A DNA stretch of 64,000 bases from a virus (lineage: Duplodnaviria; Caudoviricetes), in the IMG/VR virus record IMGVR_UViG_3300037602_000018, positions 1 through 64,000 of that record; one strand, given 5' to 3'. Positions 1,015-18,932 of this stretch are shown piece after piece (position 1 is the stretch's first letter; each line of letters starts with the position of its first letter). Under the pieces are notes generated by a model, which saw nothing but the letters and a program-made list of their open reading frames with translations, did not search any database and was not told where the DNA came from. The translations under genes and the position numbers were made by a program.

Positions 1015-1019
1015 TTTAT

Positions 1020-1027
1020 TATATTTG
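1020..1027 (+). promoter_or_regulatory. Bacteroidota sigma-A -7 element (TAnnTTTG)
   Basis: TATATTTG(TAA) just upstream of the tmRNA acceptor piece. The same motif occurs at 34185 and 35919. Confidence 0.6.
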
Positions 1028-1034
1028 TAAAATA

Positions 1035-1388: not shown

Positions 1389-1427
1389 AATACCACTAGT
1401 GAAGTTTAGTAACTAGTGGTATTTTTT
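1389..1427 (+). terminator. Intrinsic terminator after tmRNA
   Basis: AATACCACTAGT...ACTAGTGGTATT stem followed by a T-tract. Confidence 0.8.
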
Positions 1428-1453
1428 ATTTTAAACAATTAAATAATCTAAAT

Positions 1454-3598
1454 ATGAATGAAGTAGTTTTAGAAGTAACAATGAAGGATGTATCTCAATT
1501 GATACAGAAAAACCTAGATAAAATGGCTAGTACAGGAATGTTATTTAGAAGTAGCATTACTGGTAACGAAGTTTGGGAAATGTATATTAATGGATTTGAA
1601 AATGATCCAGTATTTCGTGATCCTGAAAGTTCAGAGCATAATTGTAATTTATGTAAGAATTTTATTAGAAGATATGGTAATATTGTAACTATTTCTGATA
1701 AAGGAGATATTATTACAATGTTTGATCTTAATAATGTTGGGAATTATCAGAATTCTTTTAATATGATTTCCAGCAGATTAAAATCTGCTGAAATTAAAGA
1801 TGTATTTTTTGAAACATTTAATGAGTTAAATTCATTACCTTATGAATCTTGTAAAAAATCTCAAGATAAATTTAAATTAGGTATTGATAAAAATGTCAAA
1901 AGATATACTAAGGAAGAAGCTGAAAAATTTGGTGTTGTTCAACCTAATGAAGTTAGAACATTTCATCATTTACATGTACATATTCCAAAAGAGTTTGTTG
2001 ATACGACTGGTAAATCTGTAGAAGCTATTATGGCTGAATACAGAGATAAATATTTTGTATTTAAGAGATGTATGCAAGAAATATCTTTAGATATTTTAAA
2101 ATTAGTAAGAGATCTTATTAATCAAGGTTCTTTGTTAGATGGTACATCACATTTAGAAGTATTAGAGCAGATTATTTTTCATAAAACATCTCATGATGAA
2201 GTATTAAACATTACTGATAATTGGTATTGGGAAACTTCTTATACTATGTCTGAAAGATTAGCTAAATTTAAAAATACTCTTATTGGTGTACTTTGTACTG
2301 AATTATCAGAAGGAGAAGATTTAAATAAAGCTTGTCTTAATTGGAATAAAAGAGTTGATCCAGCTAATTATATGAAAGCTACGGCTCCTATTACTAAAAG
2401 ACAAATTGAAGAAGCTAAGAAATTTGTTCAGGAAAATGATTATGAAGAATCATTTAATAGAAGATTTGCTTTATTAGATGATATTAAAGTATCTGAAATT
2501 CTTCATAGTAATGTAGGAGATGGTAAAGTTAAAACAGTATCTATATTTGATAATGTTAAATCAACTACATCTAAGAAACAGAATTTTGAAAACGTAGAAG
2601 AAATAGCTATAGAAAAATTTATGTCTGATGTATTACCAAGTTGTGATTCTATTGAGGCTTATTTAGAAAATAGAATGCAAGGTAATTTAGTTACATTAAC
2701 TACAGCTAACAATCCTGAAAGTAAACCAATATTTAAATGGTCTAATAATTATAGTTGGACTTATAATGGTAATCTTGCAGGTAAATCTTTGATTAAACAA
2801 ACAGTTAAAGATTTAGGAGGTAATGTTGAAGGTGTTCTTAATTTTAGATTAGCTTGGAATGAATCAGGTCAGGATAATTCTGATTTAGATTTATGGGCTA
2901 TTGAACCTAATAATAATAAAATAGGTTTTTCTACTTCATATCGTAAAGATAGAGGTGGTAATATAAGAACTCCTATGTCTGGACAATTAGATGTAGATAT
3001 TACAAGTCCTAGAGGAAAATTAGCTGTTGAAAATATTACATGGACTGATATAAATAAAATGAAAAATGGTATTTATAAAGTCTATGTAAATCCATACAGA
3101 ATTAGTAATACTCAAGGTTTTAAAATGGAGATTGAATTTGATGGAAATACTTATTCTTATTTTTATGATAATCCTGTTAGAGTAAATGTTAATGTAGCAG
3201 AAATTACATTAAATAATGGACAATTTAGTATTAAACATTTAATACCAGAATCAGGAATATCTTCTAAAGAACTTTGGGGATTAAATACAAATCAGTTTCA
3301 TAAAGTAAACTTAGTATGTTTGTCTCCTAACCACTGGGAAGATTCTGTAGGTAATAAACATTATTTCTTTATGTTAGATGGTTGTTATTCTGATGTTTCT
3401 GTCAGAAGTTTTCATAATGAAAATTTAATTCAGGAATTATTAGATCATAGAAAAGTAATGGAAGTATTAGGTAGTACCAATATGCTTGAACCTACTAAAA
3501 ATCAATTAGCGGGATTAGGTTTTAATGCTACTATTAAAGATGAATTAATAGTAAAATGTACAGGTTCTTTTAATAGAATATTAAAAATTAAATTTTAA
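1454..3598 (+). CDS. Conserved phage hypothetical protein with a C-terminal YfaP/DUF2135-like segment
   Basis: 714 aa; HNCNLC near the N-terminus; DLDLW...GQLDVD...AVENITW motifs. Confidence 0.55.
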   Translation: MNEVVLEVTMKDVSQLIQKNLDKMASTGMLFRSSITGNEVWEMYINGFENDPVFRDPESSEHNCNLCKNFIRRYGNIVTISDKGDIITMFDLNNVGNYQNSFNMISSRLKSAEIKDVFFETFNELNSLPYESCKKSQDKFKLGIDKNVKRYTKEEAEKFGVVQPNEVRTFHHLHVHIPKEFVDTTGKSVEAIMAEYRDKYFVFKRCMQEISLDILKLVRDLINQGSLLDGTSHLEVLEQIIFHKTSHDEVLNITDNWYWETSYTMSERLAKFKNTLIGVLCTELSEGEDLNKACLNWNKRVDPANYMKATAPITKRQIEEAKKFVQENDYEESFNRRFALLDDIKVSEILHSNVGDGKVKTVSIFDNVKSTTSKKQNFENVEEIAIEKFMSDVLPSCDSIEAYLENRMQGNLVTLTTANNPESKPIFKWSNNYSWTYNGNLAGKSLIKQTVKDLGGNVEGVLNFRLAWNESGQDNSDLDLWAIEPNNNKIGFSTSYRKDRGGNIRTPMSGQLDVDITSPRGKLAVENITWTDINKMKNGIYKVYVNPYRISNTQGFKMEIEFDGNTYSYFYDNPVRVNVNVAEITLNNGQFSIKHLIPESGISSKELWGLNTNQFHKVNLVCLSPNHWEDSVGNKHYFFMLDGCYSDVSVRSFHNENLIQELLDHRKVMEVLGSTNMLEPTKNQLAGLGFNATIKDELIVKCTGSFNRILKIKF

Positions 3599-3604
3599 AC
3601 TATT

Positions 3605-3682
3605 TTGGATGTAGCTCAATTGGTTAGAGCAGCTCACCTTAAACATAAGAGCAGGTTAGAGGTTCGAATCCTCTCATCCATA
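3605..3682 (+). tRNA. tRNA-like gene with aberrant anticodon arm (identity undetermined)
   Basis: Acceptor TGGATG/CATCCA, D arm GCTC/GAGC and T arm AGAGG-TTCGAAT-CCTCT are canonical. The anticodon stem GCTC/GAGC encloses a 13-nt loop ACCTTAAACATAA. Confidence 0.7.
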
Positions 3683-3697
3683 CTAAATTTTTAAACT

Positions 3698-4072
3698 ATG
3701 AGTGATATATTTAAAACAGCTACTAGAAACAAGCTTAGAGTTTCTACGACAAGAGGAATGTTATCTGTTGAACAACTTTGGGATTTGAATTTATCAGATC
3801 TTGATGAAATTGCAGTAACTCTTGATTCTCAAGTATCTAAGACAGCTACAAAAACTTTTCTTAGTAAAACTACAGAAAAAGATAAAATTACTAAATTAAT
3901 GTTTGATGTAGTATTAGAAATACTTAAAACTAAACAAACTGATCAAGAACGTGCGTTAAAAGCTGCTGAAACTAAACGTCACAATCAGAAGATTAGTGAA
4001 CTTATTGCAGAAAAGCAAGACGAAGAACTTAAAAATATGAGTATTGAAGAGCTTGAGAAAATGATTAAATAA
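3698..4072 (+). CDS. Conserved phage hypothetical coiled-coil protein
   Basis: 124 aa; RGMLSVEQLWDL motif; followed by a terminator. Confidence 0.7.
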   Translation: MSDIFKTATRNKLRVSTTRGMLSVEQLWDLNLSDLDEIAVTLDSQVSKTATKTFLSKTTEKDKITKLMFDVVLEILKTKQTDQERALKAAETKRHNQKISELIAEKQDEELKNMSIEELEKMIK

Positions 4073-4073
4073 T

Positions 4074-4108
4074 AATAAAGCCCCTGACTATTGATTAGGG
4101 GCTTTATT
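4074..4108 (+). terminator. Intrinsic terminator
   Basis: AATAAAGCCCCT...AGGGGCTTTATT hairpin. Confidence 0.75.
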
Positions 4109-4134
4109 TAATTAAACTTAAATTATAAATAAAT

Positions 4135-4302
4135 ATGAATACAAAGAAGCAAGAAAGAAGAAAAAGTGCTTTAAAAAGATTGCAAGCACAGCTTTCAAGT
4201 GGAGTAAAAACAATTAATGACTCAAAAGTAAAAGTTGATCTTACAGAAACTGATAAAGCCAGAATTAAAAATGAAATTCAAACTTTAAAATCCAGAATAT
4301 GA
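4135..4302 (+). CDS. Small basic hypothetical protein
   Basis: ATG 4135 to TGA overlapping the next start (ATGA); MNTKKQERRK... Confidence 0.6.
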   Translation: MNTKKQERRKSALKRLQAQLSSGVKTINDSKVKVDLTETDKARIKNEIQTLKSRI

Positions 4303-4613
4303 GAACAGCTTATACAAAACAGGAAGATAATATAATTTTAGAAAATATTAGACAATATCCTAATAATTTACAATTTGCTTTTGAAAGGTCAAGTGAAGAA
4401 TTAAATAGAACTGCTAGTGCTATATCTAAAAGATATTATAATAAGTTAAGAGATAGTGCTAAAATTGCTGTAGGTAGTAATAAAGGACTAATTTTAAATA
4501 CTAAGAATACTATTAGAGATAATTCTAAGTATAATATGGTATTAGATTTAACAAGTAGTCTTACTTTAAGGGATAAGAAAAATTTAATTAAATATTTATT
4601 TGATGAATTATGA
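4299..4613 (+). CDS. Putative Myb/HTH-like DNA-binding protein
   Basis: YTKQEDNIILE...LNRTASAISKRY resembles a Myb/SANT repeat. Confidence 0.45.
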   Translation: MRTAYTKQEDNIILENIRQYPNNLQFAFERSSEELNRTASAISKRYYNKLRDSAKIAVGSNKGLILNTKNTIRDNSKYNMVLDLTSSLTLRDKKNLIKYLFDEL

Positions 4614-4731
4614 ATTTAGATGATTATTTAACTTCAGAACCTGAATATACTAATTTATGTATTCATTGTGAAGTAAATGAAGCTAAAAGAAATGGTTATT
4701 GTTCAGAAGAATGTTTTAAAGCAGATATGAG

Positions 4732-5046
4732 ATGAATAAATTATGGAATTGGATTTTATTACAATGGAAAAAGTTTACCAGAGATTATAAAATAGAAGTT
4801 AAAAGTTTAAAACTACTTACACCTTATTTGTTATTAATTAATTTTAAAGCAGATGAATGTGAAATGTATTTAACAATTGATGGTAATTATAAAGATCTTT
4901 ATAAAAAACATCATAAAAGGTCTGAAGAAGCAAAACAAAATGATGAAATAATATCATTTGATAATTATATGGAAGAGATAAATTTATTAATTCCTACAGA
5001 AGATATTATTATAATTGAATATAAAAATTGGAAAAGAAAATTATGA
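4732..5046 (+). CDS. Hypothetical protein
   Basis: ORF in a tightly packed operon. Confidence 0.6.
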   Translation: MNKLWNWILLQWKKFTRDYKIEVKSLKLLTPYLLLINFKADECEMYLTIDGNYKDLYKKHHKRSEEAKQNDEIISFDNYMEEINLLIPTEDIIIIEYKNWKRKL

Positions 5047-5498
5047 AAAAATTATTAATTATATTATTACTATTTGTATCTTATAATACTTATAGTCAAG
5101 TAGATAGTTTAGTTACTGAAACTCAAACTGAACGAATAATAGATAAATATGGCGGTAAAATAGTAGAATCTTTTAATAGATTTGCTGATAAAGCACTTCC
5201 TATAGCAGAAGAAAGTTTTAAAATAGTAGTTAAATTACAAATAGCAAAAGGAATAGGATACATGTTTATCCCTTTAATTACTATTATAATAATTTTTACA
5301 GGGTTTATATGTGCTAAAAAATCAAAAACTTTAAATGTAAAAAAATATGAATCTGATCGTTATGAAGTAATTGCTGTTATATGTATGGTATTAAGTATAA
5401 TAGGAATAATAGCTAGTTGTTTTTGTATTTATCACGGATTATTATATTTAATAGCTCCAGAGTGGTTTGCTATTGAAGAAATTTTAAACTTATTTTAA
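5028..5498 (+). CDS. Membrane protein with signal peptide
   Basis: MKKLLIILLLFVS signal-like N-terminus and two hydrophobic helices. Confidence 0.65.
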   Translation: MEKKIMKKLLIILLLFVSYNTYSQVDSLVTETQTERIIDKYGGKIVESFNRFADKALPIAEESFKIVVKLQIAKGIGYMFIPLITIIIIFTGFICAKKSKTLNVKKYESDRYEVIAVICMVLSIIGIIASCFCIYHGLLYLIAPEWFAIEEILNLF

Positions 5499-5500
5499 TT

Positions 5501-5683
5501 ATGAAATTTATATTAAGTTCTTATTTATTATATATCTTATTTTGGGTATATACGGGAATATGTTGGGTAATAAATCTTATTCAATTTTTTAATTGTGATT
5601 TTGCCTCACCTTATAAAGATGAATTAATTCATGGTATAGGAATATTTATGTTCCCAATAGCAGGTATAACAGTTTGGTTTTAA
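5501..5683 (+). CDS. Small membrane protein
   Basis: 60 aa with two hydrophobic segments. Confidence 0.6.
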   Translation: MKFILSSYLLYILFWVYTGICWVINLIQFFNCDFASPYKDELIHGIGIFMFPIAGITVWF

Positions 5684-5695
5684 TTAACCAAATTA

Positions 5696-5769
5696 GGGCC
5701 TTTAACTCAGTTGGTTAGAGTGTCTGACTCATACTCAGAAAGTCGGAGGTTCAAATCCTTCAAGGCCCA
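5696..5769 (+). tRNA. tRNA with CAT anticodon (Ile2 or elongator Met)
   Basis: Complete cloverleaf: GGGCCTT/AAGGCCC acceptor, TCTGA-CTCATAC-TCAGA anticodon arm, GGAGG-TTCAAAT-CCTTC T arm. CCA is not encoded. Confidence 0.93.
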
Positions 5770-5819
5770 CAAACTATAGGATAGTCTTATAGTTTTTTAT
5801 TAATTTAAATTTTTTTATT

Positions 5820-6245
5820 ATGTTTACTTTCAAAAGAAACACAAGAACAAACAATCTCGAAGCACAATTCTCAGCAAAGCTTATTAGCTTAAGTGAAAGT
5901 GTACAACAAAATTCTAATGGTACAGATTATCGTGTTGGTACTATTGAATTTAGTGATGTCAATGGTAATACTCAACGTTCATCAGCATTGATGTATGAGA
6001 GTAATTTTGCTTATATTCAGGATGAATATGAGAAAAATGAAGATACCAAACAACTTGAGTGTGTTAATGGAGTACAGACTTATCTTTGTACTGCTATTAA
6101 TGATGATTCAAGAGATGGTGATAATGTATTAATTACAGTAAGTCACTTGACTGGTGCTGGACGTGCTACTAAAAGCATGTTTGGTTTTGAGAATGCAAAA
6201 GTAGAAGCTCCTGAAGTAGAAGCTACTGAAGAAGTGAAAGCATAG
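5820..6245 (+). CDS. Hypothetical protein, possibly OB-fold ssDNA-binding
   Basis: Beta-rich with an acidic C-terminal tail; has its own terminator. Function is inference. Confidence 0.4.
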   Translation: MFTFKRNTRTNNLEAQFSAKLISLSESVQQNSNGTDYRVGTIEFSDVNGNTQRSSALMYESNFAYIQDEYEKNEDTKQLECVNGVQTYLCTAINDDSRDGDNVLITVSHLTGAGRATKSMFGFENAKVEAPEVEATEEVKA

Positions 6246-6261
6246 TTTAGTTAGATTGATT

Positions 6262-6299
6262 GGATGGGGTGTAGTTAATTCTGCATCTCATCCTTTTTT
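6262..6299 (+). terminator. Intrinsic terminator
   Basis: GGATGGGGTGTAG/CTGCATCTCATCC stem plus T6. Confidence 0.75.
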
Positions 6300-6307
6300 A
6301 AATTATT

Positions 6308-6568
6308 ATGAAAAGAAAAGCAATTAAAACAGAATTAATAGGTGTATCAAATAGTAATGTGAAACATTATGACTATAAGATTACTATTGAAGAAAAAGAT
6401 GGTTCTATTACAGAATTAATAGAACATGGTAAAGATTTACAAGACACTTTATCAAGAGTTATAAAAACTGGTAGAATTAAAAAAATACAACAATCTTTAG
6501 ATAAAATAATTGTACTCCTTATAATTGTAGTAATTGTATTTACAGCAATATTAATTAAAGTATTATGA
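6308..6568 (+). CDS. Hypothetical protein with C-terminal TM helix
   Basis: Hydrophobic C-terminus; overlaps the polA start. Confidence 0.6.
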   Translation: MKRKAIKTELIGVSNSNVKHYDYKITIEEKDGSITELIEHGKDLQDTLSRVIKTGRIKKIQQSLDKIIVLLIIVVIVFTAILIKVL

Positions 6569-8529
6569 ATTTAAATAACATATATTTTATAGGAGATAAT
6601 AACTTGTTTGATGATATAAATTATGCTACTATAGAAGAGTGTTATAATTATTGTAAAGATAAAAAGATATTATCTATTGATATTGAGACTACTAAAAAAT
6701 ATAATAAATATGGAGATTTAGAAGGTTTATCTCCATATTTATCTAATATTGTAATGTTTCAAATAGGTGATGGAAATAAACAGTTTATTATAGACCATAG
6801 AATAGTTAAAATTGATAAATTATTACCATTATTAACTAATAAAGAAATTAAATTAGTTGGTCATAATTTAAAATTTGAATATAGTCATATATTACATAAT
6901 TATAATATTAGAATAAATAATTTATATGATACGCAATTAGCAGAACAGATTTTATATAATGGTTATGATATAGAGTTTAACTTAAAAGCTTTAAATAAAA
7001 AATATTTAGGTAAAGAAGTAGATAAATCTACTAGATTAAATTTTTTAAATATTGGTAGCAGGCCATTTAGTAAAACTGAAATTGTATATGGAGCTGAGGA
7101 TATATTACATCCTTTACAAATAAGAGAATACCAATTAAAGAAATTAAAAGAAGAAAATTTAATTAGTTGTGTAGATCTTGAAATGAAATTTCTACCTGTA
7201 TTAGGAGATATAGAATATAAAGGTATTAATTTTAATAAAGAAATATGGTTAGAAACTTATGAAAAAAATCTTAAACAAGTAATAGAACTTAAAGATAAGT
7301 TAGATAATTATATAATAAAGAATTTTTCAGATACTAAATTTGTTGATAAACAGTTATCTTTATTTGATACTGGAATTAATTGTGCTATTAGTTGGAGTAG
7401 TCCTAAACAGACTATAGCATTTTTTAAGTATTTAAATATTTGTCCTCAAGAAGTATCTAAAACTACTAAAAAGTTAACTTATACTGTTAATGCTAAAGTA
7501 GTTAAAGCATCTTTGTTTAATATTAATAAGGATATTAGTGAAGAAAAAAGAAATTTCATTAATATTTATATCGAATATAAAGAATTAGAACAATCTTGTA
7601 CTACATTTGGTAAGGATTTCTTAAAACATATCAATCCAATTACTAATAGAATTCATAGTAATTACTGGCAATTAAAAGCTACAGGTAGAATTTCATCTAC
7701 TAATCCAAACTTACAAAATATACCTTCAAATAAAAATTTTAGAAGAGCTTTTGATGCTCCAGAAGGTAATAAAATAGTTAATGCAGATTATTCAGGACAA
7801 GAAACTGTAATACTCGCAAATCAATCACAAGAAGAAAATATTATATATCTCATTAATACTGGAGGTGATATGCATAGTTTTGTAACTAAAGCATTATATC
7901 CAGAGTTAAAAGAATTAACAGATGATGAGATTAAAACTCAACATAAAGACAAAAGACAAATAGCTAAAGCTGCTGGATTTGCAATTAATTATGGTGGTAA
8001 TGGGTTTACTATTGCTAAAAATTTAGGTATATCAGAAGAAGAAGGAGATAATGTTTATAATGCATATTTTAAAGCATTTCCTCAATTAAAAACATTCTTT
8101 GATAAAACTATAGCAGAATCTATGAGTCGTGGTTATATTATTATAGATACCTTAACAAATAGAAAGTTCTATTTTAAAGATATGGATAAATTGACTGAAT
8201 TAAAAGAAACTAAACAATGGAAAAGGTACTTTAAATTAAAAGGTAAATACGAGAGATTATGCCTTAACTATATAATTCAGGGAGCAGCAGGGTCTGTAAC
8301 TAAATATGCAGCAGTATTATTTAGAAATTGGATATTAAATAATAAACTAGAAAATAAAGTTTTTATTACTAATCTAATTCATGATGAAATAAATGTTGAA
8401 TGTAAAGGAGATATAGCAGAAATTGTAGCTACTAATTTAGAATTATGTATGAAAAAATCAGGTAATTTATGGTGTAAAACTGTACCATTAGATGCAGAAG
8501 CAGTAATAACAGAATATTGGTCACATTAA
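6565..8529 (+). CDS. polA: DNA polymerase family A with 3'-5' exonuclease
   Basis: Exo motifs DIETT, GHNLKFE and YGAED; TGRISS.NPNLQNIP; motif A ADYSGQE; motif B RQIAKAAGFAINYG; motif C IHDE. Confidence 0.95.
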   Translation: MNLNNIYFIGDNNLFDDINYATIEECYNYCKDKKILSIDIETTKKYNKYGDLEGLSPYLSNIVMFQIGDGNKQFIIDHRIVKIDKLLPLLTNKEIKLVGHNLKFEYSHILHNYNIRINNLYDTQLAEQILYNGYDIEFNLKALNKKYLGKEVDKSTRLNFLNIGSRPFSKTEIVYGAEDILHPLQIREYQLKKLKEENLISCVDLEMKFLPVLGDIEYKGINFNKEIWLETYEKNLKQVIELKDKLDNYIIKNFSDTKFVDKQLSLFDTGINCAISWSSPKQTIAFFKYLNICPQEVSKTTKKLTYTVNAKVVKASLFNINKDISEEKRNFINIYIEYKELEQSCTTFGKDFLKHINPITNRIHSNYWQLKATGRISSTNPNLQNIPSNKNFRRAFDAPEGNKIVNADYSGQETVILANQSQEENIIYLINTGGDMHSFVTKALYPELKELTDDEIKTQHKDKRQIAKAAGFAINYGGNGFTIAKNLGISEEEGDNVYNAYFKAFPQLKTFFDKTIAESMSRGYIIIDTLTNRKFYFKDMDKLTELKETKQWKRYFKLKGKYERLCLNYIIQGAAGSVTKYAAVLFRNWILNNKLENKVFITNLIHDEINVECKGDIAEIVATNLELCMKKSGNLWCKTVPLDAEAVITEYWSH

Positions 8530-8538
8530 AATAAAAAT

Positions 8539-8985
8539 ATGAAAGTAATAATTATGAAGAAGAAAAGTATTCTTCTTGGACAACAAAATGTTACAGAATG
8601 GACATTGTTAGAATATAAAAAGTTTTTTAGTATTAAATTATTTCATTTTCATAAAACAAATGGTTCTCAAGATAGATTTCATACACATGCTTTTAATGCT
8701 TATAGTATTCTTTTAAAAGGAAATTATATAGAAGAAGTGATAAAAGATAATCAAATTATTCCTTTAAATAGAAATAGAAAAATAATTTTATTTATACCTA
8801 AAGATAATTATCATAGGATTACTAAAAGTAAAGGCTGCTGGACATTATTATTTACAGGTTCTTGGGGCAAAACTTTTAAAGAATTAAGAGAAACAGAAAA
8901 TATCAATGAATATGTAGAATATATTTGTGGTGAACATAGAATTGATATAAATAAAGGAAGTACATATTATTTAAAAAACTATTAA
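8539..8985 (+). CDS. Cupin-fold protein
   Basis: FHTHAF...GNYIEE...YHRI...WTLLFTG cupin-like pattern. Confidence 0.55.
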   Translation: MKVIIMKKKSILLGQQNVTEWTLLEYKKFFSIKLFHFHKTNGSQDRFHTHAFNAYSILLKGNYIEEVIKDNQIIPLNRNRKIILFIPKDNYHRITKSKGCWTLLFTGSWGKTFKELRETENINEYVEYICGEHRIDINKGSTYYLKNY

Positions 8986-8995
8986 AACTTACAAA

Positions 8996-9277
8996 ATGAT
9001 TATACTTTTAAATCACGATAACACTACTGTAATAGGAGTATATGATAATTTATTAGAAGCAGTACTTAATAATTTTACATTGGAATTTACTTCTAGCAGA
9101 CAACTTAAAACAACTAGTAAATTATTTGATTCTTATATAAATAAAAATATTATTAGTACTTTTAGTTACGCAGATACATATACTAAAGAAGAAGCTATTA
9201 GGCATTATACTGAAAATTCTTTAAAAAGAGATATAAAAAGATACGGGATAAATATTTATCAAATAAATGAAATTTAA
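8996..9277 (+). CDS. Hypothetical protein
   Basis: ORF with phage-like composition. Confidence 0.6.
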   Translation: MIILLNHDNTTVIGVYDNLLEAVLNNFTLEFTSSRQLKTTSKLFDSYINKNIISTFSYADTYTKEEAIRHYTENSLKRDIKRYGINIYQINEI

Positions 9278-9479
9278 AAATTATGGAAGATACTTATGAA
9301 ATTATAGTTAGTGATTTAGATGAACAAAGTCATATCACGGAAGAATATAATAATTAATAAAATGGAAAAACCACAATTCAAAAGCTTGGAAATTTATTTA
9401 GTCACAATAATATCATTATTAACCTTTATCTGGCTGACTGTATTATTAAAATGAAGCCATACAACCACAGGTAATTATC

Positions 9480-9543
9480 TCCTAACGGTTTGGTTATGCT
9501 GACGTTGTGAGGAACGAGCAATGCAGTATAGGTGTTGTTAGGC
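9480..9543. repeat. attC-like site 0
   Basis: TCCTAAC-ggtttggt-TATGCTG(A)CGTTG...CAATG-CAGTATA-ggtgtt-GTTAGGC; one bulged base and G.T pairs. Confidence 0.75.
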
Positions 9544-9570
9544 TTTCGTTTAATTTTAAAATAGATAAAT

Positions 9571-9834
9571 ATGAAAATAGTAACAGAATTAGGAAACAAG
9601 TACTCTCGTGGAAGTTTTGAAGACTACACAAGGAGAGCAAAAATATGTATGGAGACCAATGAAGGACATACACACCAAATAGATATTTACACAACTGACA
9701 CGAACAAGGAAAGTGTAGAAATGTTTTTGCGAAGCCGAGCAAGTGAAAAAGTAAGTGACTTGAAAATAACCTATTGGGCAACAAGAGAAGCTGATGATAG
9801 TGCTTCAAAACTTATTGAGGATTGGCTTAATTAG
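9571..9834 (+). CDS. Cassette-borne hypothetical protein
   Basis: 87 aa, inside the first GTT...AAC module. Confidence 0.7.
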   Translation: MKIVTELGNKYSRGSFEDYTRRAKICMETNEGHTHQIDIYTTDTNKESVEMFLRSRASEKVSDLKITYWATREADDSASKLIEDWLN

Positions 9835-9860
9835 AAATGCGGGAGCTTAATTTTTAAACT

Positions 9861-10061
9861 ATGGATTATTACAAAGAGACAGTAGATAAGATTCTATCTG
9901 AATTATCAATAGCTGGAAATTTCACAATTTTCATTTGGATATTATTTCAGCGACACAAGTTCAATAAAATACATTCTCTTGTAGAACAAGGCATGGCCGT
10001 GAAATTTGCGTTCAGAGAAGCTAAAAAATTGAAGCGGAGCGTTTCGACCGAAGGCAATTAA
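9861..10061 (+). CDS. Cassette-borne hypothetical protein
   Basis: 66 aa; stop abuts GCCCTAAC. Confidence 0.6.
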   Translation: MDYYKETVDKILSELSIAGNFTIFIWILFQRHKFNKIHSLVEQGMAVKFAFREAKKLKRSVSTEGN

Positions 10062-10062
10062 G

Positions 10063-10157
10063 CCCTAACGTTTTGCGTATATGAGCAGTACGCAAAACAA
10101 GAACTTTAAAATTAAATATAAACCTTAATAGCGTATTGCTTATATACGCTGTTAGCA
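10063..10157. repeat. attC-like site 1
   Basis: CCCTAAC-gtttt-GCGTATATGAGCAGTACGC...GCGTATTGCTTATATACGC-t-GTTAGCA; 19-bp arms with two G.T pairs. Confidence 0.8.
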
Positions 10158-10170
10158 AACGTTTTTAAAT

Positions 10171-10323
10171 ATGGAATTTGATGAATCAAAACAAGAAGAC
10201 CCTAAATACTTGATTGAATATTACAAGTCAAGAATCGAAATATGGAAAAACCATCCCAAGGGGAAGAAGATAGTAGATAGATACAAGAAAGCAGTTGAAA
10301 GACTTTCTGTAAATGTTTGCTAA
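10171..10323 (+). CDS. Cassette-borne 50-aa protein (below ORF-track cutoff)
   Basis: MEFDESKQEDPKYLIEYYKSRIEIW...VNVC; its TAA lies within the GCTAAC box. Confidence 0.7.
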   Translation: MEFDESKQEDPKYLIEYYKSRIEIWKNHPKGKKIVDRYKKAVERLSVNVC

Positions 10324-10439
10324 CGGTTGCGTGTATGAAACGTTGCCAACACAATTGTTAATAAAATGAACAGAATTATAAAATTAGTATAAACTTAAAA
10401 AAGACCACGAAAGGCAATGTTTTATACACGTTGTTATGT
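10318..10439. repeat. attC-like site 2
   Basis: TGCTAAC-ggttg-CGTGTATGAAACGTTGCC...GGCAATGTTTTATACACG-tt-GTTATGT. Confidence 0.8.
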
Positions 10440-10452
10440 GGCGTTAATTATT

Positions 10453-10611
10453 ATGAGAACATTAGTAAATTACATCATACAAATTTTTTGCAAACATGAC
10501 TTTGAAATAGAAGATACGTTTGTAACAACAGATTACGGTAAACAAGGTGGAAAACGATATTTATATTGCAAAAAATGTGGATACCACACTAAACACTGGA
10601 AGCACGTTTAA
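10453..10611 (+). CDS. Cassette-borne small Cys/His (Zn-finger-like) protein
   Basis: MRTLVNYIIQIFCKHDF...YCKKCG; ATG 10453 preferred over 10417. Confidence 0.7.
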   Translation: MRTLVNYIIQIFCKHDFEIEDTFVTTDYGKQGGKRYLYCKKCGYHTKHWKHV

Positions 10612-10615
10612 TGCC

Positions 10616-10817
10616 ACATAACGCCTACGGCTATGTTGTCGTTGCGATTTATTAACAAATAATGATATTGAAATGAAAAACTTTGAAGAACTAAAAGAAG
10701 CTATAAAAAGCAATAGCTTTAATGAAAGCCACCTAAGTAGCACACAAGTAGTTGACTTAGAAACGGTAATTGCATTAATAGAGGATTTTGAGCAATGCAA
10801 TATAGCTAATGTTGTAA
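10616..10817. repeat. attC-like site 3 (ORF start inside loop)
   Basis: ACATAAC-gcctac-GGCTATGTTG(T)CGTTGC...GCAATGCAATATAGCT-aat-GTTGTAA. Confidence 0.75.
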
Positions 10818-10918
10818 AACCGAAGGGAACGTTACCCGTTTCACTGCTTGATATTTCACAAGATGAATGGATTGAAAACTGTGAGCGTATTTTCGGAGGA
10901 AGCCCAAACAAAGGGTAA
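10673..10918 (+). CDS. Cassette ORF reading through the GTT box
   Basis: ...CNIAN-VVKPKGTL...; GTT 10811 is an in-frame Val codon. Confidence 0.7.
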   Translation: MKNFEELKEAIKSNSFNESHLSSTQVVDLETVIALIEDFEQCNIANVVKPKGTLPVSLLDISQDEWIENCERIFGGSPNKG

Positions 10919-10922
10919 TGTT

Positions 10923-11155
10923 TTACAACGGTTTGTGTAAACGTCTGTAAATTAAAATTACTACAATGGATAAAATAGAATTAGCAAAGTGGCTTCACGA
11001 TAACTATGAAGAAGTTGCAAAAGAGCAAAATTGGAACACGCAAGAAAATTGCAAAGTAGAATTTGACACTTTGCCTGACGCTAATAAGCGAACAATGATT
11101 GAAATAGCGGAAAGACTTCTCAATTTTAATTTATTGCGTTTACATTTTGTTGTAG
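10923..11155. repeat. attC-like site 4 (ORF start inside loop)
   Basis: TTACAAC-ggttt-GTGTAAACGTCTGTAAATTAAAATT...AATTTTAATTTATTGCGTTTACAT-ttt-GTTGTAG. Confidence 0.8.
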
Positions 11156-11253
11156 GGCGAAGCGAACAGTTGCCCGAAAGTGAAAAACTATGCAGAAATA
11201 ACCAAAACTTTAAGTGTAATTGTGATTGGCGAAAAGAGTGCCCTAACTTTTAA
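10966..11253 (+). CDS. Cassette ORF reading through the GTT box
   Basis: ...LRLHF-VVGRSEQL... with a Cys-rich tail; GTT 11149 in frame. Confidence 0.75.
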   Translation: MDKIELAKWLHDNYEEVAKEQNWNTQENCKVEFDTLPDANKRTMIEIAERLLNFNLLRLHFVVGRSEQLPESEKLCRNNQNFKCNCDWRKECPNF

Positions 11254-11263
11254 GGGCAATTGC

Positions 11264-11397
11264 CTACAACGGTTAAGTATAAAAATAGTTTATTATGAGA
11301 AGTAAAACAGCAAAAAGAATATTAGAAGAAACTCCGCAAGAAGTAAAAGACAAAGTGCAAGACTATGCTAATAAATTGATTTTATACAATGTTAGCC
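11264..11397. repeat. attC-like site 5 (ORF start at loop edge)
   Basis: CTACAAC-ggttaa-GTATAAAAATAGTTTATTA...TAATAAATTGATTTTATAC-aat-GTTAGCC. Confidence 0.8.
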
Positions 11398-11516
11398 AAC
11401 AACGTGAACTGTTAATTGCGTATGAAAAGAACCATTATACACCACAAGAATGGGCTTTAGCAAGTAAGCAATGTATTGAAGATATAGACAACTTCTTAGC
11501 AATTAATTGTGGCTAA
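11295..11516 (+). CDS. Cassette ORF reading through the GTT box
   Basis: ...LILYN-VSQQRELL...; GTT 11391 in frame; stop TAA inside GGCTAAC. Confidence 0.75.
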   Translation: MRSKTAKRILEETPQEVKDKVQDYANKLILYNVSQQRELLIAYEKNHYTPQEWALASKQCIEDIDNFLAINCG

Positions 11517-11600
11517 CGGTTTGTGTATGTGCCGTGCAAACCACTAAAGATTGAATTACGGCACTAACTTTCGCTGCATGGCATATACACTTTGTTGTGC
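11511..11600. repeat. attC-like site 6
   Basis: GGCTAAC-ggttt-GTGTATGTGCCGTGCA...TGCATGGCATATACAC-ttt-GTTGTGC. Confidence 0.8.
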
Positions 11601-11626
11601 GTATGTGGCGGTTTAAAAGAACGAAA

Positions 11627-11827
11627 ATGAGTTTATTATACAAACCAAAAGAAGAACAGACTACTACTTGCGAAATAAAGCAGGAAGATGGTAGAGTAGT
11701 TTTAGACTTCTACTCTGATTGTGGAAAGTTCGGAACTGATGAAATGCTTGACGGCTACAAATTAACGCCAGAAAGATTGTTGCAGATTTTACAGGATAGG
11801 GATGATTACTCCGAAGACGAATTGTAG
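11627..11827 (+). CDS. Cassette-borne acidic hypothetical protein
   Basis: MSLLYKPKEE...; frame is open back to GTT 11594. Confidence 0.7.
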   Translation: MSLLYKPKEEQTTTCEIKQEDGRVVLDFYSDCGKFGTDEMLDGYKLTPERLLQILQDRDDYSEDEL

Positions 11828-11834
11828 CCATTAC

Positions 11835-11852
11835 GCACAACTTTTGTTGTAG
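11835..11852. repeat. Collapsed attC-like site 7
   Basis: GCACAAC-tttt-GTTGTAG: both boxes kept, internal arms absent. Confidence 0.65.
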
Positions 11853-11871
11853 CATCGTAAAGCGAACGATT

Positions 11872-12006
11872 ATGAAAGAAAAGAGCGGATATAAAAGAGA
11901 ATGTTTAAGTACTCGTTTTGATGAGTGGAGAATGAGATGGGTGAGAAAATGGAAATACACTTGGTCTGATGGCACAATAGAAATTAAACACACTTATAGC
12001 AAGTGA
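11872..12006 (+). CDS. Cassette-borne 44-aa Trp-rich protein (below ORF-track cutoff)
   Basis: MKEKSGYKRECLSTRFDEWRMRWVRKWKYTWSDGTIEIKHTYSK fills the module 11846-12022. Confidence 0.65.
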   Translation: MKEKSGYKRECLSTRFDEWRMRWVRKWKYTWSDGTIEIKHTYSK

Positions 12007-12015
12007 GCGTATGTG

Positions 12016-12143
12016 CTACAACGGTTTGGATAAACAGCGTTTAATTATGAAAAAGAAGAAATTAACAATCATAGCAGCCCATGATAGAGGAAGAACAACG
12101 GTGGCAAAACAAGCCATTAAATGCGGTTTATCTGTTGTTGTAA
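12016..12143. repeat. attC-like site 8 (ORF start at loop edge)
   Basis: CTACAAC-ggttt-GGATAAACAGCGTTTAAT...ATTAAATGCGGTTTATCT-gtt-GTTGTAA. Confidence 0.8.
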
Positions 12144-12229
12144 AATCGGGTTGTCGATATTGTAGTGGAAACAATATTCTCAGCTTCGACAATGATAAGT
12201 ACTGTAAGGATTGTGACAAGATGTTGTAA
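12047..12229 (+). CDS. Cassette ORF reading through the GTT box; C-terminal CxxC...CxxC Zn ribbon
   Basis: MKKKKLTII...GLSV-VVKSGCRYC...CKDC; GTT 12137 in frame. Confidence 0.7.
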   Translation: MKKKKLTIIAAHDRGRTTVAKQAIKCGLSVVVKSGCRYCSGNNILSFDNDKYCKDCDKML

Positions 12230-12240
12230 GGCAAACTGTT

Positions 12241-12382
12241 TTACAACGGTGAAGGTATGGATAGTTATTTACCGATTTAAAAGATAAAATTATGACAAAA
12301 GAACAAGTATTAGATGCAGTAGAAAAAGCAATAGATAAAGCCTTTGAGCGAGGTAAAGAATTATCTATACATAGTGTTAGCG
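12241..12382. repeat. attC-like site 9 (ORF start inside loop)
   Basis: TTACAAC-ggtgaag-GTATGGATAGTT...AATTATCTATAC-atagt-GTTAGCG. Confidence 0.75.
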
Positions 12383-12525
12383 ATTGTTTTTCTTTTGCTA
12401 AATACTTAAATGAAAACTTCCACTACTTTGATAATACAGATGTAGGTGATGTTTACAAAGATAATGATGGGCAAGGACTTTATTCTGAAAAGGACATTTA
12501 TGATGAGTGGTTAAATAATCGCTAA
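12292..12525 (+). CDS. Cassette ORF reading through the GTT box
   Basis: ...LSIHS-VSDCFSF...; GTT 12376 in frame; stop TAA inside CGCTAAC. Confidence 0.75.
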   Translation: MTKEQVLDAVEKAIDKAFERGKELSIHSVSDCFSFAKYLNENFHYFDNTDVGDVYKDNDGQGLYSEKDIYDEWLNNR

Positions 12526-12843
12526 CTACAATATAAACAACGTTTAAAAATACAACCATGCATGTTTATTAAAATTATATTCAAATTATATTCAAATGTT
12601 AAATAAATCAGATGAAGTACCTAAATTAGAATTTTTTACTAAAGACGAACAAATTAAATTTCTTAATTTAAGAATAGAAGCTTTAGAAAAAAGAGTAAAA
12701 ATACTTGAAAATGAAAAAACAAAGAAAGAAATATAAATTTAAAAATCAGATAATTATTGCTGATAATCATTGGGGAGCATGGAATGTAGCTTGTAATATT
12801 AGTAATGAATCAGTTAAATTATGTGATATAAAACTTATAGAAG

Positions 12844-13941
12844 ATGAAGATTCATGAAAAGAAAACTAAAATACAAAATAAAGCTATAGATATATGGTTT
12901 AAAATTAAGAGAGCATGTCTTGTAATGTGTACGGGATCTGGTAAATCTAAGGTTGGTGTGGATATAATTACTAGTGGATATTATAAAAATCCTTTAATAG
13001 TTGTACCTACTGAAAAACTTAGAGACGATAGGTGGCCTGAAGAATTTGCTAAATGGGGACATAAGTCTGATTGGGTAGATAGAGAATGTTATGCTTCTTT
13101 ACACAAAATAGATTTAAATAAGTATGATTTAATTGTTTTTGATGAAGCACATAATTTAACTCCATTAAACAGTCAAAACTTTGATAATTATAAAGGAGAT
13201 ATATTAGGATTAACAGCTACGCCACCTAGAGATGAAAAAAAGAAAGAGATATTTAAAAAATATATACCAATAGTATTTGAATATCATTTAGATGAGGCTG
13301 TAAAAGATGGTGTAGTTGCTCCTTATAAAATAAATGTAGTACAGTTTAACTTAGAATCTAAAGTTAAGACTATTAGAATTAAAACTAAAAAATATGATTT
13401 TATGAGTACTGAAAGACAAAGTTATGAAAGTCTTTCAAGAAAAATAGATCAAATTATATTTGCTGGTAAAGATTCTAAATTTATGGCTTTAGCTAGAATG
13501 AGATTTCTATATAATTTAGAAACTAAAGTAAAATATGGGATTAAAATTCTTAATAAATATATGAAGAATGATAGATCAATCATATTTGCTGGTAGTATTA
13601 AACAAGCTGAGAAATTGTGTAAACATACATTTCATTCAAAAACTACAGATGAGAGTTATAAATTATTTAAATCTGGTAAAATAAATAAAATTGGTACAGT
13701 TAATAAATTAAATGAAGGAGCTGATTTAGAAGGATTAGATTCTGCATTAATATTAGCTACTAACTCTAATCCTATTACTCTTATTCAAAGAATTGGTAGA
13801 ATTGTTCGTATTAGAGATAATCATCAGGCAATTATATGGATTTTATGTGCCAGAAATACACAAGAAGAAAAATGGATTTCTAAAGCTACCAGTCAATTAG
13901 ATAGTGTTAATATTAATTATTTAAATATAGAGGATTTATGA
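12844..13941 (+). CDS. Superfamily 2 helicase
   Basis: TGSGKS, DEAH, GLTATP and QRIGRIVR motifs. Confidence 0.9.
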   Translation: MKIHEKKTKIQNKAIDIWFKIKRACLVMCTGSGKSKVGVDIITSGYYKNPLIVVPTEKLRDDRWPEEFAKWGHKSDWVDRECYASLHKIDLNKYDLIVFDEAHNLTPLNSQNFDNYKGDILGLTATPPRDEKKKEIFKKYIPIVFEYHLDEAVKDGVVAPYKINVVQFNLESKVKTIRIKTKKYDFMSTERQSYESLSRKIDQIIFAGKDSKFMALARMRFLYNLETKVKYGIKILNKYMKNDRSIIFAGSIKQAEKLCKHTFHSKTTDESYKLFKSGKINKIGTVNKLNEGADLEGLDSALILATNSNPITLIQRIGRIVRIRDNHQAIIWILCARNTQEEKWISKATSQLDSVNINYLNIEDL

Positions 13942-15947: not shown

Positions 15948-16204
15948 AAGAACATTTAAATAAAGCAATTGGAATATTGGATAGTTATATATCTACAGAG
16001 TCAGAAGGATATATTATTTTATATAAAGGAAAACAAATTAAATTACCTAGTGGTAAGAGTATATGGAGTAAGAAAAATCATGCTAGTGCAGCATTAACTA
16101 ATTCTTTATATGGACATTTTAGTAAATATAGACATGGTATTACTCCTTCAGAAGTTACTAAATTACTTATTAAAGAAGGTTTAATTGAAGTTAAAAAATT
16201 ATGA
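15944..16204 (+). CDS. Hypothetical protein
   Basis: ATGA overlaps at both ends. Confidence 0.65.
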   Translation: MKEHLNKAIGILDSYISTESEGYIILYKGKQIKLPSGKSIWSKKNHASAALTNSLYGHFSKYRHGITPSEVTKLLIKEGLIEVKKL

Positions 16205-17040
16205 AAATAAATAAATATCCAGATGGTAGTAGTTATGTACAAGGAAGTTCACTATTAAGTACAAATCACATTTTTAAAATAAATTCTTATGAAAATTTAT
16301 GGCAATTAAATCAATTTGTAGATTGTTTAAATAATCAAGGAATTACTCCTAATATTACTATTCCAAATCTTATAGATGCTCAAGCAGATAGAAGATTTCA
16401 GTTTAATCAATCTAGTGGTTTAAAATTAGTATGTAAGTTTCTTAATGAAATGAATGCTAAGTTTAAAATATTCCATCCACATAATCCTGAAGTTGTAGAA
16501 GCTTTAATGGATAATGTTGAGATTATTGATAATAATGAATTTATTACTAAGATATTATTAGAAAGTTTAATTAAAGATTGTCCAAGTATTTTACAAAATG
16601 GTATTAAAAATGATAATTTAATTTTAATGTCATCAGATGCAGGTGGGTTTAAACCTTTAATGAAATTATGTGATAAAATTAAATGGCAAGGGGAGACTTT
16701 TAGTGCTAGTAAAGCTAGAATGTCTAAAGGAATGACACAAATGATAGGATGTGAAGATTTTAACGGTAAAGATATTCTCATTATAGATGATATATGCGTT
16801 TACGGAGGTACTTTTAAAGGATTATCTCAGTTACTTAGAGAAAGAAATTGTGGTAAATTATATTTAGCAGTATCACATATGACTGTGCAAAATATAGGAG
16901 AAGACCCTGTAACTAATTACTTTGATAAGGTGTTTACTACTAATAGTAAGTATGATGAATACTTTACATATATTGGACAAGGATACGATGAAATAATGGG
17001 TGTAATACCAGAAAATTTAGAAATAATAAAAATGTTTTAA
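16201..17040 (+). CDS. Ribose-phosphate pyrophosphokinase-like protein (Prs/Adps-like)
   Basis: YPDGS, AQADRRF, HPHN, SDAGG, PRPP-binding loop LIIDDICVYGGTF, LAVSH. Confidence 0.85.
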   Translation: MKINKYPDGSSYVQGSSLLSTNHIFKINSYENLWQLNQFVDCLNNQGITPNITIPNLIDAQADRRFQFNQSSGLKLVCKFLNEMNAKFKIFHPHNPEVVEALMDNVEIIDNNEFITKILLESLIKDCPSILQNGIKNDNLILMSSDAGGFKPLMKLCDKIKWQGETFSASKARMSKGMTQMIGCEDFNGKDILIIDDICVYGGTFKGLSQLLRERNCGKLYLAVSHMTVQNIGEDPVTNYFDKVFTTNSKYDEYFTYIGQGYDEIMGVIPENLEIIKMF

Positions 17041-17041
17041 T

Positions 17042-17308
17042 ATGAAAAATTTACACATTTATGTAGAAGGAGATATTAATGATGGTGATTACATCTCTGA
17101 AGTAACTGATATTAGCGATTTAACTAAAGAAGAAGTTATAGATATTTACAATAAATTAAAAAGTTATAATCCTAGAAAAGGTAAATGTCCTGATGAAATA
17201 ATGGATTATCTTCCTTGGTTGGATAATGAAGAACTTCATACCATAACAGACGTACAATTACAAATCATTGAAAATATAGAATTAAAAGATTTAGAAAAAA
17301 ATGTTTAA
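17042..17308 (+). CDS. Acidic hypothetical protein
   Basis: Lies between the Prs-like and NAMPT-like genes. Confidence 0.6.
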   Translation: MKNLHIYVEGDINDGDYISEVTDISDLTKEEVIDIYNKLKSYNPRKGKCPDEIMDYLPWLDNEELHTITDVQLQIIENIELKDLEKNV

Positions 17309-18932
17309 AATAAATCCACTATATCTATCTGATGGATATAAAATTTCGCACAAAGCCATGTTAGCTAAAGGTACTACTAAATTATATGGAACATGGATTC
17401 CTAGAAGTACTAAACATGCTCCTAAAGGTATTAGTAAAGTAGTATCTTTTGGTCAACAAATGGTATGGCAGTATATTCATGATGCTTTTGAAGATAATTT
17501 CTTTTCTCAACCAAAACATAGAGCTGAAGAATTTCAAAAAGATATTTTAGAATATCTTGGAATGGAATACAATGGTAAACATTTTGAAGAATTATGGGAT
17601 TTAGGTTATTTACCTATTAGAGTTAAATCTTTACCTGAAGGTATTGAAACAGACCCTAATATTCCTCACATGACTTTTGTAAATACAGTAGATGGGTTCG
17701 CATGGTTGACATTATATTTAGAAACTTTAGTTTCTTCATTAGCATGGAAACCAAGTACATCAGCTACAATAGCTTTACAATATCGTAGAAATGTTGAAAA
17801 AGCTTTTAATGAAACTTGTAAAGACCAAAAAGAATTAATTCCATTTATGTGCCATGATTTCTCTGCAAGAGGATTAAATCCACATGATATGATTAGTTCA
17901 GGTTTAGGCCATGCAACTAGTTTTAGAGGTTCTGATACATTATCTGTTATTCCAGCAGCTAGATATTATTATGGTGAAAAAGATGTCTGTATAAACTCTG
18001 TAAATGCTTCTGAACATTCAGTTTCAACTACTAAGATATTTACTGTAGGTGAAAAGCAAATGATATTAGATTGGTGTAAAGAATTTCCTACAGGTATATT
18101 ATCTATTGTAGCTGATACATTTGATTTATGGAAATTAATTACAGAGTATCTTACTGATCCTGAAGTAAAAGAAGCTGTATTAGCTAGAGATGGTAAATTA
18201 GTAATTAGACCTGATTCAGGTGATCCTGTAGATATTGTTTGTGGTAATGCTTGGAGAGTTCAAGGATGCACAGATGCTGTTAGAGAAAAAGTGGGAGAAG
18301 GTGGTATGGTTTATCACTATATAGATAAAAAGTATTATGAAATTTTTACTAATCAAGCTACAGGTAAACCTTATTTTTCAGAACCTAATGATATATTACC
18401 AGAACAAAAAGGAGTAATAGAACTTCTTTGGGATATATTTGGAGGTACTATTAATAAACAAGGTTATAAAGTATTAGATTCTCATATTGGAGCTATTTAT
18501 GGTGATTCAATTACTATTGATAGACAAGTTCAAATCTATGAAAGATTAAAAGCTAAAGGTTTTGCAGCTAGTAATATTGTGCTTGGAATAGGCTCATTTT
18601 CATATGGTTACAATAGTAGAGACACTCTGGGTTGGGCTGCTAAAGGTAGTTGGTTTGAAGTTGAAGAAATTTTTGATACATCGAATAGTTTTTCAAGAGA
18701 AGTTAAATCTTATAATATTTACAAAGACCCAGTAACAGATGATGGTACTAAAAAATCTTTAAAAGGATTGTGTCAAGTATCTCAGGATAAACATGGAGAA
18801 TATGTAGTTTATACAGAATGTTCTAAAGAAGCTGAAGAAGTTGGATTATTACAAACTATTTATGAAGATGGTAAGTTTCATAATCAAACTACTTTAACTG
18901 AAGTTAGAAGGCAAATAAATACAATAGTTTAA
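17301..18932 (+). CDS. nadV: Nicotinamide phosphoribosyltransferase-like protein (NAMPT/Namat)
   Basis: DGYKISH, HDFSARG, ASEHSV, VIRPDSGDP, IYGDSIT and KDPVTDDGTKKSLKG motifs. Confidence 0.9.
   Translation: MFKINPLYLSDGYKISHKAMLAKGTTKLYGTWIPRSTKHAPKGISKVVSFGQQMVWQYIHDAFEDNFFSQPKHRAEEFQKDILEYLGMEYNGKHFEELWDLGYLPIRVKSLPEGIETDPNIPHMTFVNTVDGFAWLTLYLETLVSSLAWKPSTSATIALQYRRNVEKAFNETCKDQKELIPFMCHDFSARGLNPHDMISSGLGHATSFRGSDTLSVIPAARYYYGEKDVCINSVNASEHSVSTTKIFTVGEKQMILDWCKEFPTGILSIVADTFDLWKLITEYLTDPEVKEAVLARDGKLVIRPDSGDPVDIVCGNAWRVQGCTDAVREKVGEGGMVYHYIDKKYYEIFTNQATGKPYFSEPNDILPEQKGVIELLWDIFGGTINKQGYKVLDSHIGAIYGDSITIDRQVQIYERLKAKGFAASNIVLGIGSFSYGYNSRDTLGWAAKGSWFEVEEIFDTSNSFSREVKSYNIYKDPVTDDGTKKSLKGLCQVSQDKHGEYVVYTECSKEAEEVGLLQTIYEDGKFHNQTTLTEVRRQINTIV

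Follow-up and report, generated by a model that had tools for sequence, protein, structure and literature searches.

Organization of the array

The sequence analyzed here, referred to below as the window, comprises 64,000 nucleotides of phage DNA (IMG/VR record IMGVR_UViG_3300037602_000018) and makes up the opening 64 kb of a complete genome that is 103 kb long, terminally repeated, and 28% in GC content. The DNA polymerase gene polA and two small genes are followed by an array of palindromic modules (A) that alternate with intervening segments (B, here called bodies), after which a superfamily 2 (SF2) helicase gene is found. The original prediction, made from the letters of this DNA alone, had placed an integron-like cassette array at this position between polA and the helicase, and both genes were indeed found on either side (Table 1).

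The array is made up of nine hairpins of 56 to 225 nt and one 10-nt stub, alternating with ten bodies, B1 to B10. Ten palindromic A modules had been predicted; nine of them are hairpins, whereas the module at 11839-11848 is only the stub. Each of the ten predicted end pairs of the B segments was present at its position. The accompanying claim that the ends of a body pair with each other held as well, least clearly for B1, in which the pairing extends over only 6 nt and does not exceed that of the R boxes of its hairpin, A0. Contiguous own-end pairing in B1 to B10 amounted to 6, 10, 10, 10, 8, 8, 10, 9, 9, and 10 nt (median, 9.5), compared with 6, 5, 4, 3, 6, 3, 3, 5, 6, and 3 nt inside a single hairpin; the remaining combinations of ends averaged 4.1 nt. 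A chain parser gave the region a score of 120 (19 modules), the maximum in 200 dinucleotide shuffles being 5.7, and found no second chain of such modules elsewhere in the 103-kb genome. By folding z-score alone most single hairpins were not significant, so the support for the array comes from the chained pattern. The hairpins had no match in Rfam. In all nine the base after AAC is G, as on the canonical, published bottom strands, and the A1, A2, A6, and A8 hairpins contain no bulge.

All 11 predicted small open reading frames (ORFs) were present, lying on the folded (+) strand, and the three stop codons expected inside TAAC boxes were located at 10323, 11516, and 12525. The ORFs had been regarded as captured cargo; five of them, however, begin in a hairpin loop and have their halves swapped at the GTT core (see below), so they are not mere cargo between sites. 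No match that would give a cassette ORF a function was obtained in Pfam, PHROGs, or the protein atlas, in a scan covering all but ORF 11872-12006. Cassette 1 is possibly a fused or eroded unit, and the A7 stub probably locks B7 and B8 together. At the left boundary, inverted repeat I18 (9445-9465 with 9534-9554) brings a second AAC box, immediately preceding A0, into pairing with a tandem GTT at 9534, and this end of the array may hold a nested or older site.

Table 1. Coordinates of the array modules and of the flanking genes in the window
Feature	Coordinates	Strand	Remarks
Family A DNA polymerase (polA)	6565..8529	+	Left context; PF01612, PF00476
A0, attC-like hairpin	9484..9539	-	Left (oldest) end
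Cassette 1 (A0+B1)	9486..10068	-	ORFs on + strand, 9571-9834 (87 aa) and 9861-10061 (66 aa); end pairing of B1, 6 nt only
Cassette 2 (A1 10067-10153 + B2)	10069..10323	-	ORF 10171-10323 (50 aa), +
Cassette 3 (A2 10322-10435 + B3)	10324..10621	-	ORF, +, end at 10611
Cassette 4 (A3 10620-10813 + B4)	10622..10928	-	ORF 10673-10918, starts in loop, through GTT in frame 0
Cassette 5 (A4 10927-11151 + B5)	10929..11269	-	ORF 10966-11253, 61-aa hairpin-encoded front, 34-aa tail
Cassette 6 (A5 11268-11393 + B6)	11270..11516	-	ORF 11295-11516, 32-aa front, 41-aa tail; both found with other partners
Cassette 7 (A6 11515-11596 + B7)	11517..11840	-	ORF 11627-11827
A7, collapsed 10-nt site	11839..11848	-	Both cores, no stem
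Cassette 8 (A7 stub + B8)	11841..12021	-	ORF 11872-12006 (44 aa)
Cassette 9 (A8 12020-12139 + B9)	12022..12246	-	ORF 12047-12229, through GTT in frame 0
Cassette 10, newest position (A9 12245-12378 + B10)	12247..12525	-	ORF 12292-12525, through GTT in frame 0
Degenerate attI-like core, array end	12524..12537	-	4.5 bits; no recombinase gene after
SF2 helicase	12844..13941	+	Right context

A short tyrosine recombinase adjoins related arrays

The recombinase serving the array had been expected either elsewhere in the genome or in trans. No tyrosine recombinase was detected in the complete 103-kb genome with PF00589 or with a family hidden Markov model run with filters off, whereas the in-trans alternative gained support, since homologous sites adjoin a dedicated enzyme in other phages. 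A search with the B5 motif retrieved 66 viral stretches, several of which carry a tyrosine recombinase gene of 263 to 273 codons straight after the last body. When 80 loci were fetched by the recombinase protein alone, arrays were found in 56, all on the strand of the gene and mostly just upstream of it; some of these loci are duplicates, and 13 of the 24 array-negative ones have less than 900 nt upstream. In 32 distinct arrays the modules stop 20 to 120 nt before the recombinase gene, at a common AT-rich core that resembles an attI site. The right end of the window array is a degenerate version of this core, ranking 5th among the 1,463 AAC sites of the genome, while the internal junctions score -2 to -23. 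Two window hairpins have direct homologues in recombinase-adjacent arrays, A1 in L098, L116, L127, and L138 and A2 in L127, L152, and L158; A2 also has a homologue in L002.

Domains PF13495 and PF00589 are both present in the recombinase, which is about 265 aa long and retains the catalytic motifs. In an alignment to IntI4 (2a3v), the region of the insertion measures 75 residues in IntI4 and only 30 in the phage enzyme, some 45 fewer; the partner enzyme is not the insertion-bearing IntI type that had been proposed. Similarly, TIGR02249 matched the phage recombinases only as two split segments scoring 145 to 158 against a cut-off of 265. Their best NCBIfam match was NF040815 (XerA, "site-specific tyrosine recombinase/integron integrase"), with 167 to 181 bits, yet below its cut-off of 220, and an array-linked role lies outside the annotation of that family. 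Homologues with 40 to 46% identity encoded by plasmids are named as NF040815 or TnpF; those of Acinetobacter plasmids (H36-H60) show 46% identity, and one of them is named TnpF. Recombinase homologues with arrays were also present in genome assemblies, mostly of Bacteroidota. A frameshifted recombinase stands beside an array in a 334-kb phage (L074:1153-1815), and a lone decayed A2-like site is found in the 462-kb phage LR756500 (L002:5001-5113); in these cases arrays decay once the enzyme is lost.

Orientation of the array and the mobile unit

The offset between R' and R'', taken in the original prediction as the signature of successive cassette integration, is present. It is symmetric, however, arising whichever core is cut, and does not fix the orientation. 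With neutral scoring, G.T mismatches in the stems of the window numbered 11 on the + strand and 0 on the - strand, and among all loci 615 wobbles favored + and 64 favored -. The first non-Watson-Crick pair past the body stems was G.T or T.G on the + strand in 323 of 485 cases. Because of this bias and of the AAC-G start, the + strand is assigned the part of the recombined bottom strand.

Near-identical bodies located in different arrays retained their upstream hairpin and broke off at AAC (L116/L147, L102/L114, L007/L179, L130/L140, and P12002S/L), and homologues of A4 showed one-sided linkage downstream in eight cases and upstream in none. The cassette can be defined from these comparisons as an A hairpin together with the body that follows on the right, the main cut falling at the AAC core, and the array faces the minus strand (leftward), with all its ORFs antisense to the cassettes. 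With such a unit, the ORFs that span the hairpin-body junction stay whole in normal movement. A unit formed by a body and its downstream hairpin was rejected as the main route (0 of 8 one-sided pairs). Judged by comparison, the attC-like folding favors one strand and the breakpoints fall at the AAC of that strand; modules in related loci move with breakpoints at the AAC and GTT boxes. For its part, the array of the window phage was invariant in all assemblies compared and looks frozen.

Natural gains and losses in cultured phages

The recombinase is also encoded by Polaribacter phages Freya_1 to Freya_10 and by Cellulophaga phage Ingeline. The Freya isolates (MT732463-MT732472; loci L248-L256) were about 100% identical over the stretches compared, and they differed in length. 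Compared with Freya_10, Freya_9 was shorter by 307 bp, Freya_8 by 902 bp, Freya_5 by 3,198 bp, Freya_2 by 4,100 bp, and Freya_1 by 4,942 bp, and every length difference corresponded to a block bounded by AAC cores (for Freya_1, Freya_2, and Freya_8, one side of the join was deduced from record length and gene position). With the exception of that of Freya_8, these blocks ended at the attI-like site located 46 nt before the recombinase gene, the same site at which Freya_6 carries an extra unit of 472 bp absent from Freya_10. The unit missing from Freya_9 has an ORF that starts in the hairpin and runs through GTT in frame, and it moved whole; none of the Freya differences lay at GTT. An attI-like entry site next to the recombinase is apparent in the relatives, both in the core common to the 32 arrays and in the Freya gains and losses, and is degenerate in the window. 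Judged by these alignments, the Freya isolates appear to be a naturally arisen series in which cassettes were gained or lost precisely, next to a recombinase devoid of the insertion.

A second exchange point at GTT

In the five window ORFs that start in a hairpin loop the GTT core is read as a valine codon, always in the same frame. Across loci, GTT junctions were crossed in frame 0 in 125 of 341 cases and in the other frames in 6 and 25. The 61-aa front encoded by A4 was found in 113 database proteins with 93 different tail clusters, none resembling the tail in the window; the 41-aa tail encoded by B6 (77 to 100% identical) occurred behind 22 unrelated fronts, and the A5 front carried four tail types. 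Protein similarity switched at the valine. Each window protein stands alone in its cluster at 90%, and clustering therefore conceals none of these combinations.

The same was seen at the DNA level. Five genomes share B6 at 94 to 97% identity, yet the hairpins to its left and right differ among them; B7 was 91% identical to a body in L023 beneath another hairpin; and in 32 loci A4 was followed by 13 distinct 10-mers at the start of the body, about half of the joined bodies keeping an own-end pairing of 8 to 9 nt. The body families joined at the junction have only four bases in common, and the codon before the valine stays with the hairpin, varying freely among the partners of B6. These comparisons indicate that bodies and hairpins change partners exactly at GTT, which would yield natural chimeric proteins. 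The exchange appears to be slower than that at AAC, as close pairs keep the link and the Freya events spare GTT; even so, hairpins with 97 to 98% identity already carried different bodies in four of five pairs.

Members of a hairpin family are found with bodies that are unrelated to one another. An identical 40-nt core, for instance, accompanies many unrelated bodies (L104, L116, L118, L119, L130, L140, L141, L148, and L150), in the manner of Vibrio repeats, and is a clue to how new cassettes are made. B5-type bodies (L004-L069), of 116 to 134 nt, have a fixed 10-nt bulge and a second, covarying stem that encloses a hypervariable interior, which often encodes CxxC peptides.

Proposed mechanism and alternative explanations

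We consider it likely that the window array is an orphan member of an integron-like system found in phages of Bacteroidota, in which cassettes cut at AAC stack by an attI-like site, hairpins and bodies exchange partners at GTT, and a recombinase without the insertion, encoded next to the arrays, serves both reactions. The prediction of a site-specific, integron-like array served in trans is supported, as homologous sites adjoin a recombinase in other phages and modules break at AAC and GTT.

The comparisons show that each A module is an attC-like hairpin folding on the + strand and that the cassettes move as units cut at AAC, stacking by the attI-like site about 50 nt upstream of the gene for the ~265-aa tyrosine recombinase. 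This gene diverges from the cassette direction, which leaves the antisense ORFs co-oriented with it and with the surrounding phage genes. According to the model, the enzyme would catalyze the reactions at both AAC and GTT, its strand choice being relaxed by sites without extrahelical bases and by its own lack of the I2 insertion. Occasional excision on the other strand would free a body together with the hairpin downstream of it. Closed into a circle, this piece would behave as a regular cassette that has gained a new hairpin, and an in-frame hybrid ORF would stay behind in the donor. A precedent for relaxed strand choice comes from a Vibrio site deprived of its extrahelical bases, which showed a 50-fold increase in top-strand recombination, with a shift of the top-strand crossover to R'', and a partial loss of strand choice (PMC2727003). 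The window phage would have acquired its array as a block, which would be reshuffled only if a coinfecting phage, a prophage, or the host supplied the recombinase.

Several observations weigh against this model. IntI no longer excises between two attC sites when both have lost their extrahelical bases (PMC2727003), so the proposed other-strand route needs a different enzyme behavior. About half of the A4 partners begin with the same motif of about 23 nt, so part of the swapping on the GTT side could be short-homology recombination; this motif was absent from 297 bodies of recombinase-adjacent arrays. The Freya length variants could in part be assembly choices from mixed lysates. As to current activity, the window array was 100% identical across all assemblies compared, about a dozen, which probably sample one population.

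A competing account, which we regard as doubtful though the strongest of the alternatives, is that the recombinase drives movement at AAC, while the chimeras arise from homologous or illegitimate phage recombination at GTT motifs, or from cassette building that reuses templates, and not from other-strand cleavage. The strong bias of A4 toward one body-start family agrees with it, as do the breaks inside the hairpin loop in L028 and L069, the lack of Freya differences at GTT, and a gene annotated as RecT in Freya. Short-homology recombination may explain swaps within one body-start family but not joins between families, for which the four shared bases are too little homology. The 13 body starts joined to A4, about half with their own-end pairing intact, and the free variation of the codon before the valine among B6 partners also argue against this account.

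It is improbable that the array is an ordinary cluster of attC sites lacking integrases (CALIN), with classical attC sites served by a host IntI and the short recombinase as an unrelated neighbor, for instance the integrase of a prophage. Virulent phages, Polaribacter phage P12002L among them, are known to carry CALINs (PMC9892861), and the Freya and Ingeline genes have been interpreted as lysogeny integrases in a report that never mentions integrons (PMC8776804). However, the spacing of about 50 nt and the orientation are fixed in dozens of unrelated phages, and the Freya variants end at exactly that site near the recombinase. Furthermore, the sites have no extrahelical bases and carry 2 to 4 extra bases on the other arm, and P12002L attC1, the only complete site of the same type assayed, was alone among six sites in giving no recombination with IntI1 (PMC9892861). 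The notion that the B segments, given their 8- to 10-nt inverted ends, are miniature transposons, or the hairpins RNA elements or terminators, with incidental alternation, is scarcely tenable, since the ends differ between bodies apart from a 3-nt core, alternation is strict, Rfam gave no match, integron cassettes normally pair their ends over 9 to 11 nt (PMC2727003), and the joint movement of A and B already contradicts it.

Comparison with known systems

The phage system shares with integrons (IntI1 and VchIntIA) the hairpin sites, the AAC/GTT cores in R'' and R', one preferred folded strand with the crossover at its AAC, cassette ends that pair over 8 to 10 nt, an attI-like stacking site, and a PF13495 and PF00589 recombinase divergent from the cassettes. 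It differs in that the recombinase lacks the I2 insertion and falls under the TIGR02249 cut-off; the sites, up to 225 nt long, show no conserved extrahelical bases or canonical spacer (338 of 431 hairpins had no bulge in the first 16 bp; bulges lay on the left in 58 and on the right in 35), with a spacer asymmetry of 2 to 4 nt; start codons lie in the loop, and the ORFs are antisense to the cassettes instead of lying outside the site in the attC top-strand sense; and partners are frequently exchanged at the second core. The recombinase gene is missing from the element in the window phage and present beside homologous arrays elsewhere. With nine hairpins and no recombinase, the array fits the loose definition of a CALIN (at least two attC-like sites and no integrase nearby). 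The system works like an integron but falls outside the integron family as defined, since the insertion and the extrahelical bases are absent from it.

The closest published elements are the CALINs of virulent phages, which likewise are groups of attC sites carried by lytic phages without an integrase (Qi et al. 2023, PMC9892861). Polaribacter phages P12002L and P12002S share body B6 (92 to 93%) and the site type with the window array. In that report two sites were called in P12002L, and long arrays, a cognate recombinase, antisense ORFs, and chimeras were not described (PMC9892861). Elements such as CTXphi, for which XerCD acts on folded single strands, resemble the phage system in an insert-less recombinase and a stem without extrahelical bases, whereas the phage system has a phage-encoded recombinase, its own attI-like site, and multicassette arrays; no dif-like target was seen in it, no search aimed at dif having been made. 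Phage CALINs aside, the literature search found no description of a link between recombinase and array, most subscription papers being beyond its reach, and this widespread system of Bacteroidota phages is apparently undescribed.

Recombination of single-stranded cassettes is credited to the I2 insertion and the extrahelical bases. The phage system appears to stack cassettes without either of them, which bears on the origin of integrons. We tentatively propose, as a reading with somewhat less than even chances, that Bacteroidota phages harbor a second, independent kind of integron, in which an insert-less, Xer-like recombinase cuts both cores and combines gene capture with programmed in-frame protein shuffling, and which would be a living example of the ancestor proposed for integrons, from before the I2 insertion. 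A Xer-like, insert-less phage system preceding integrons has been speculated upon by Escudero et al. 2016 (PMC4792948). Many very small phage proteins without known role, a large class, would be explained as combinatorial products of two DNA modules, and lytic crAss-like phages would draw on a cassette pool common to unrelated phages. The cultured Freya series and its host offer a ready experimental model for the recombinase, the crossover, and the circles.

Genomic setting of the array

The major capsid protein of the window phage and its counterpart in Cellulophaga phage phi14:2 are 45% identical; identity to the capsid proteins of crAss phages was 42%, and crAss phages also gave the top matches of its DnaB. 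The phage had been called crAss-like, and this assignment stands on the capsid and replication genes of crAss type and on the terminally repeated genome of about 100 kb. It presumably infects a Bacteroidota host.

The ratio of observed to expected CpG was 1.06 in the array, 0.32 in the left flank (1-9483), and 0.19 in the right flank (12527-64000). The array is compositionally foreign and was probably acquired from outside, as judged from this contrast and from the helicase relatives (29 to 59% identity), beside which no array was seen, some of these contigs being short. With polA as the query, no close loci were retrieved. The strong CpG depletion of the flanks suggests that restriction sites of the host are avoided. 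Two further stretches of the genome, 70-78 kb and 80-84 kb, are richer in CpG, and neither contained an array. Finally, at 16201-18932 of the window, a gene with a phosphoribosyltransferase domain stands beside a nicotinate/nicotinamide phosphoribosyltransferase gene, likely a salvage pair for nicotinamide adenine dinucleotide (NAD), which we take to be a possible counter to NAD-depleting defenses.

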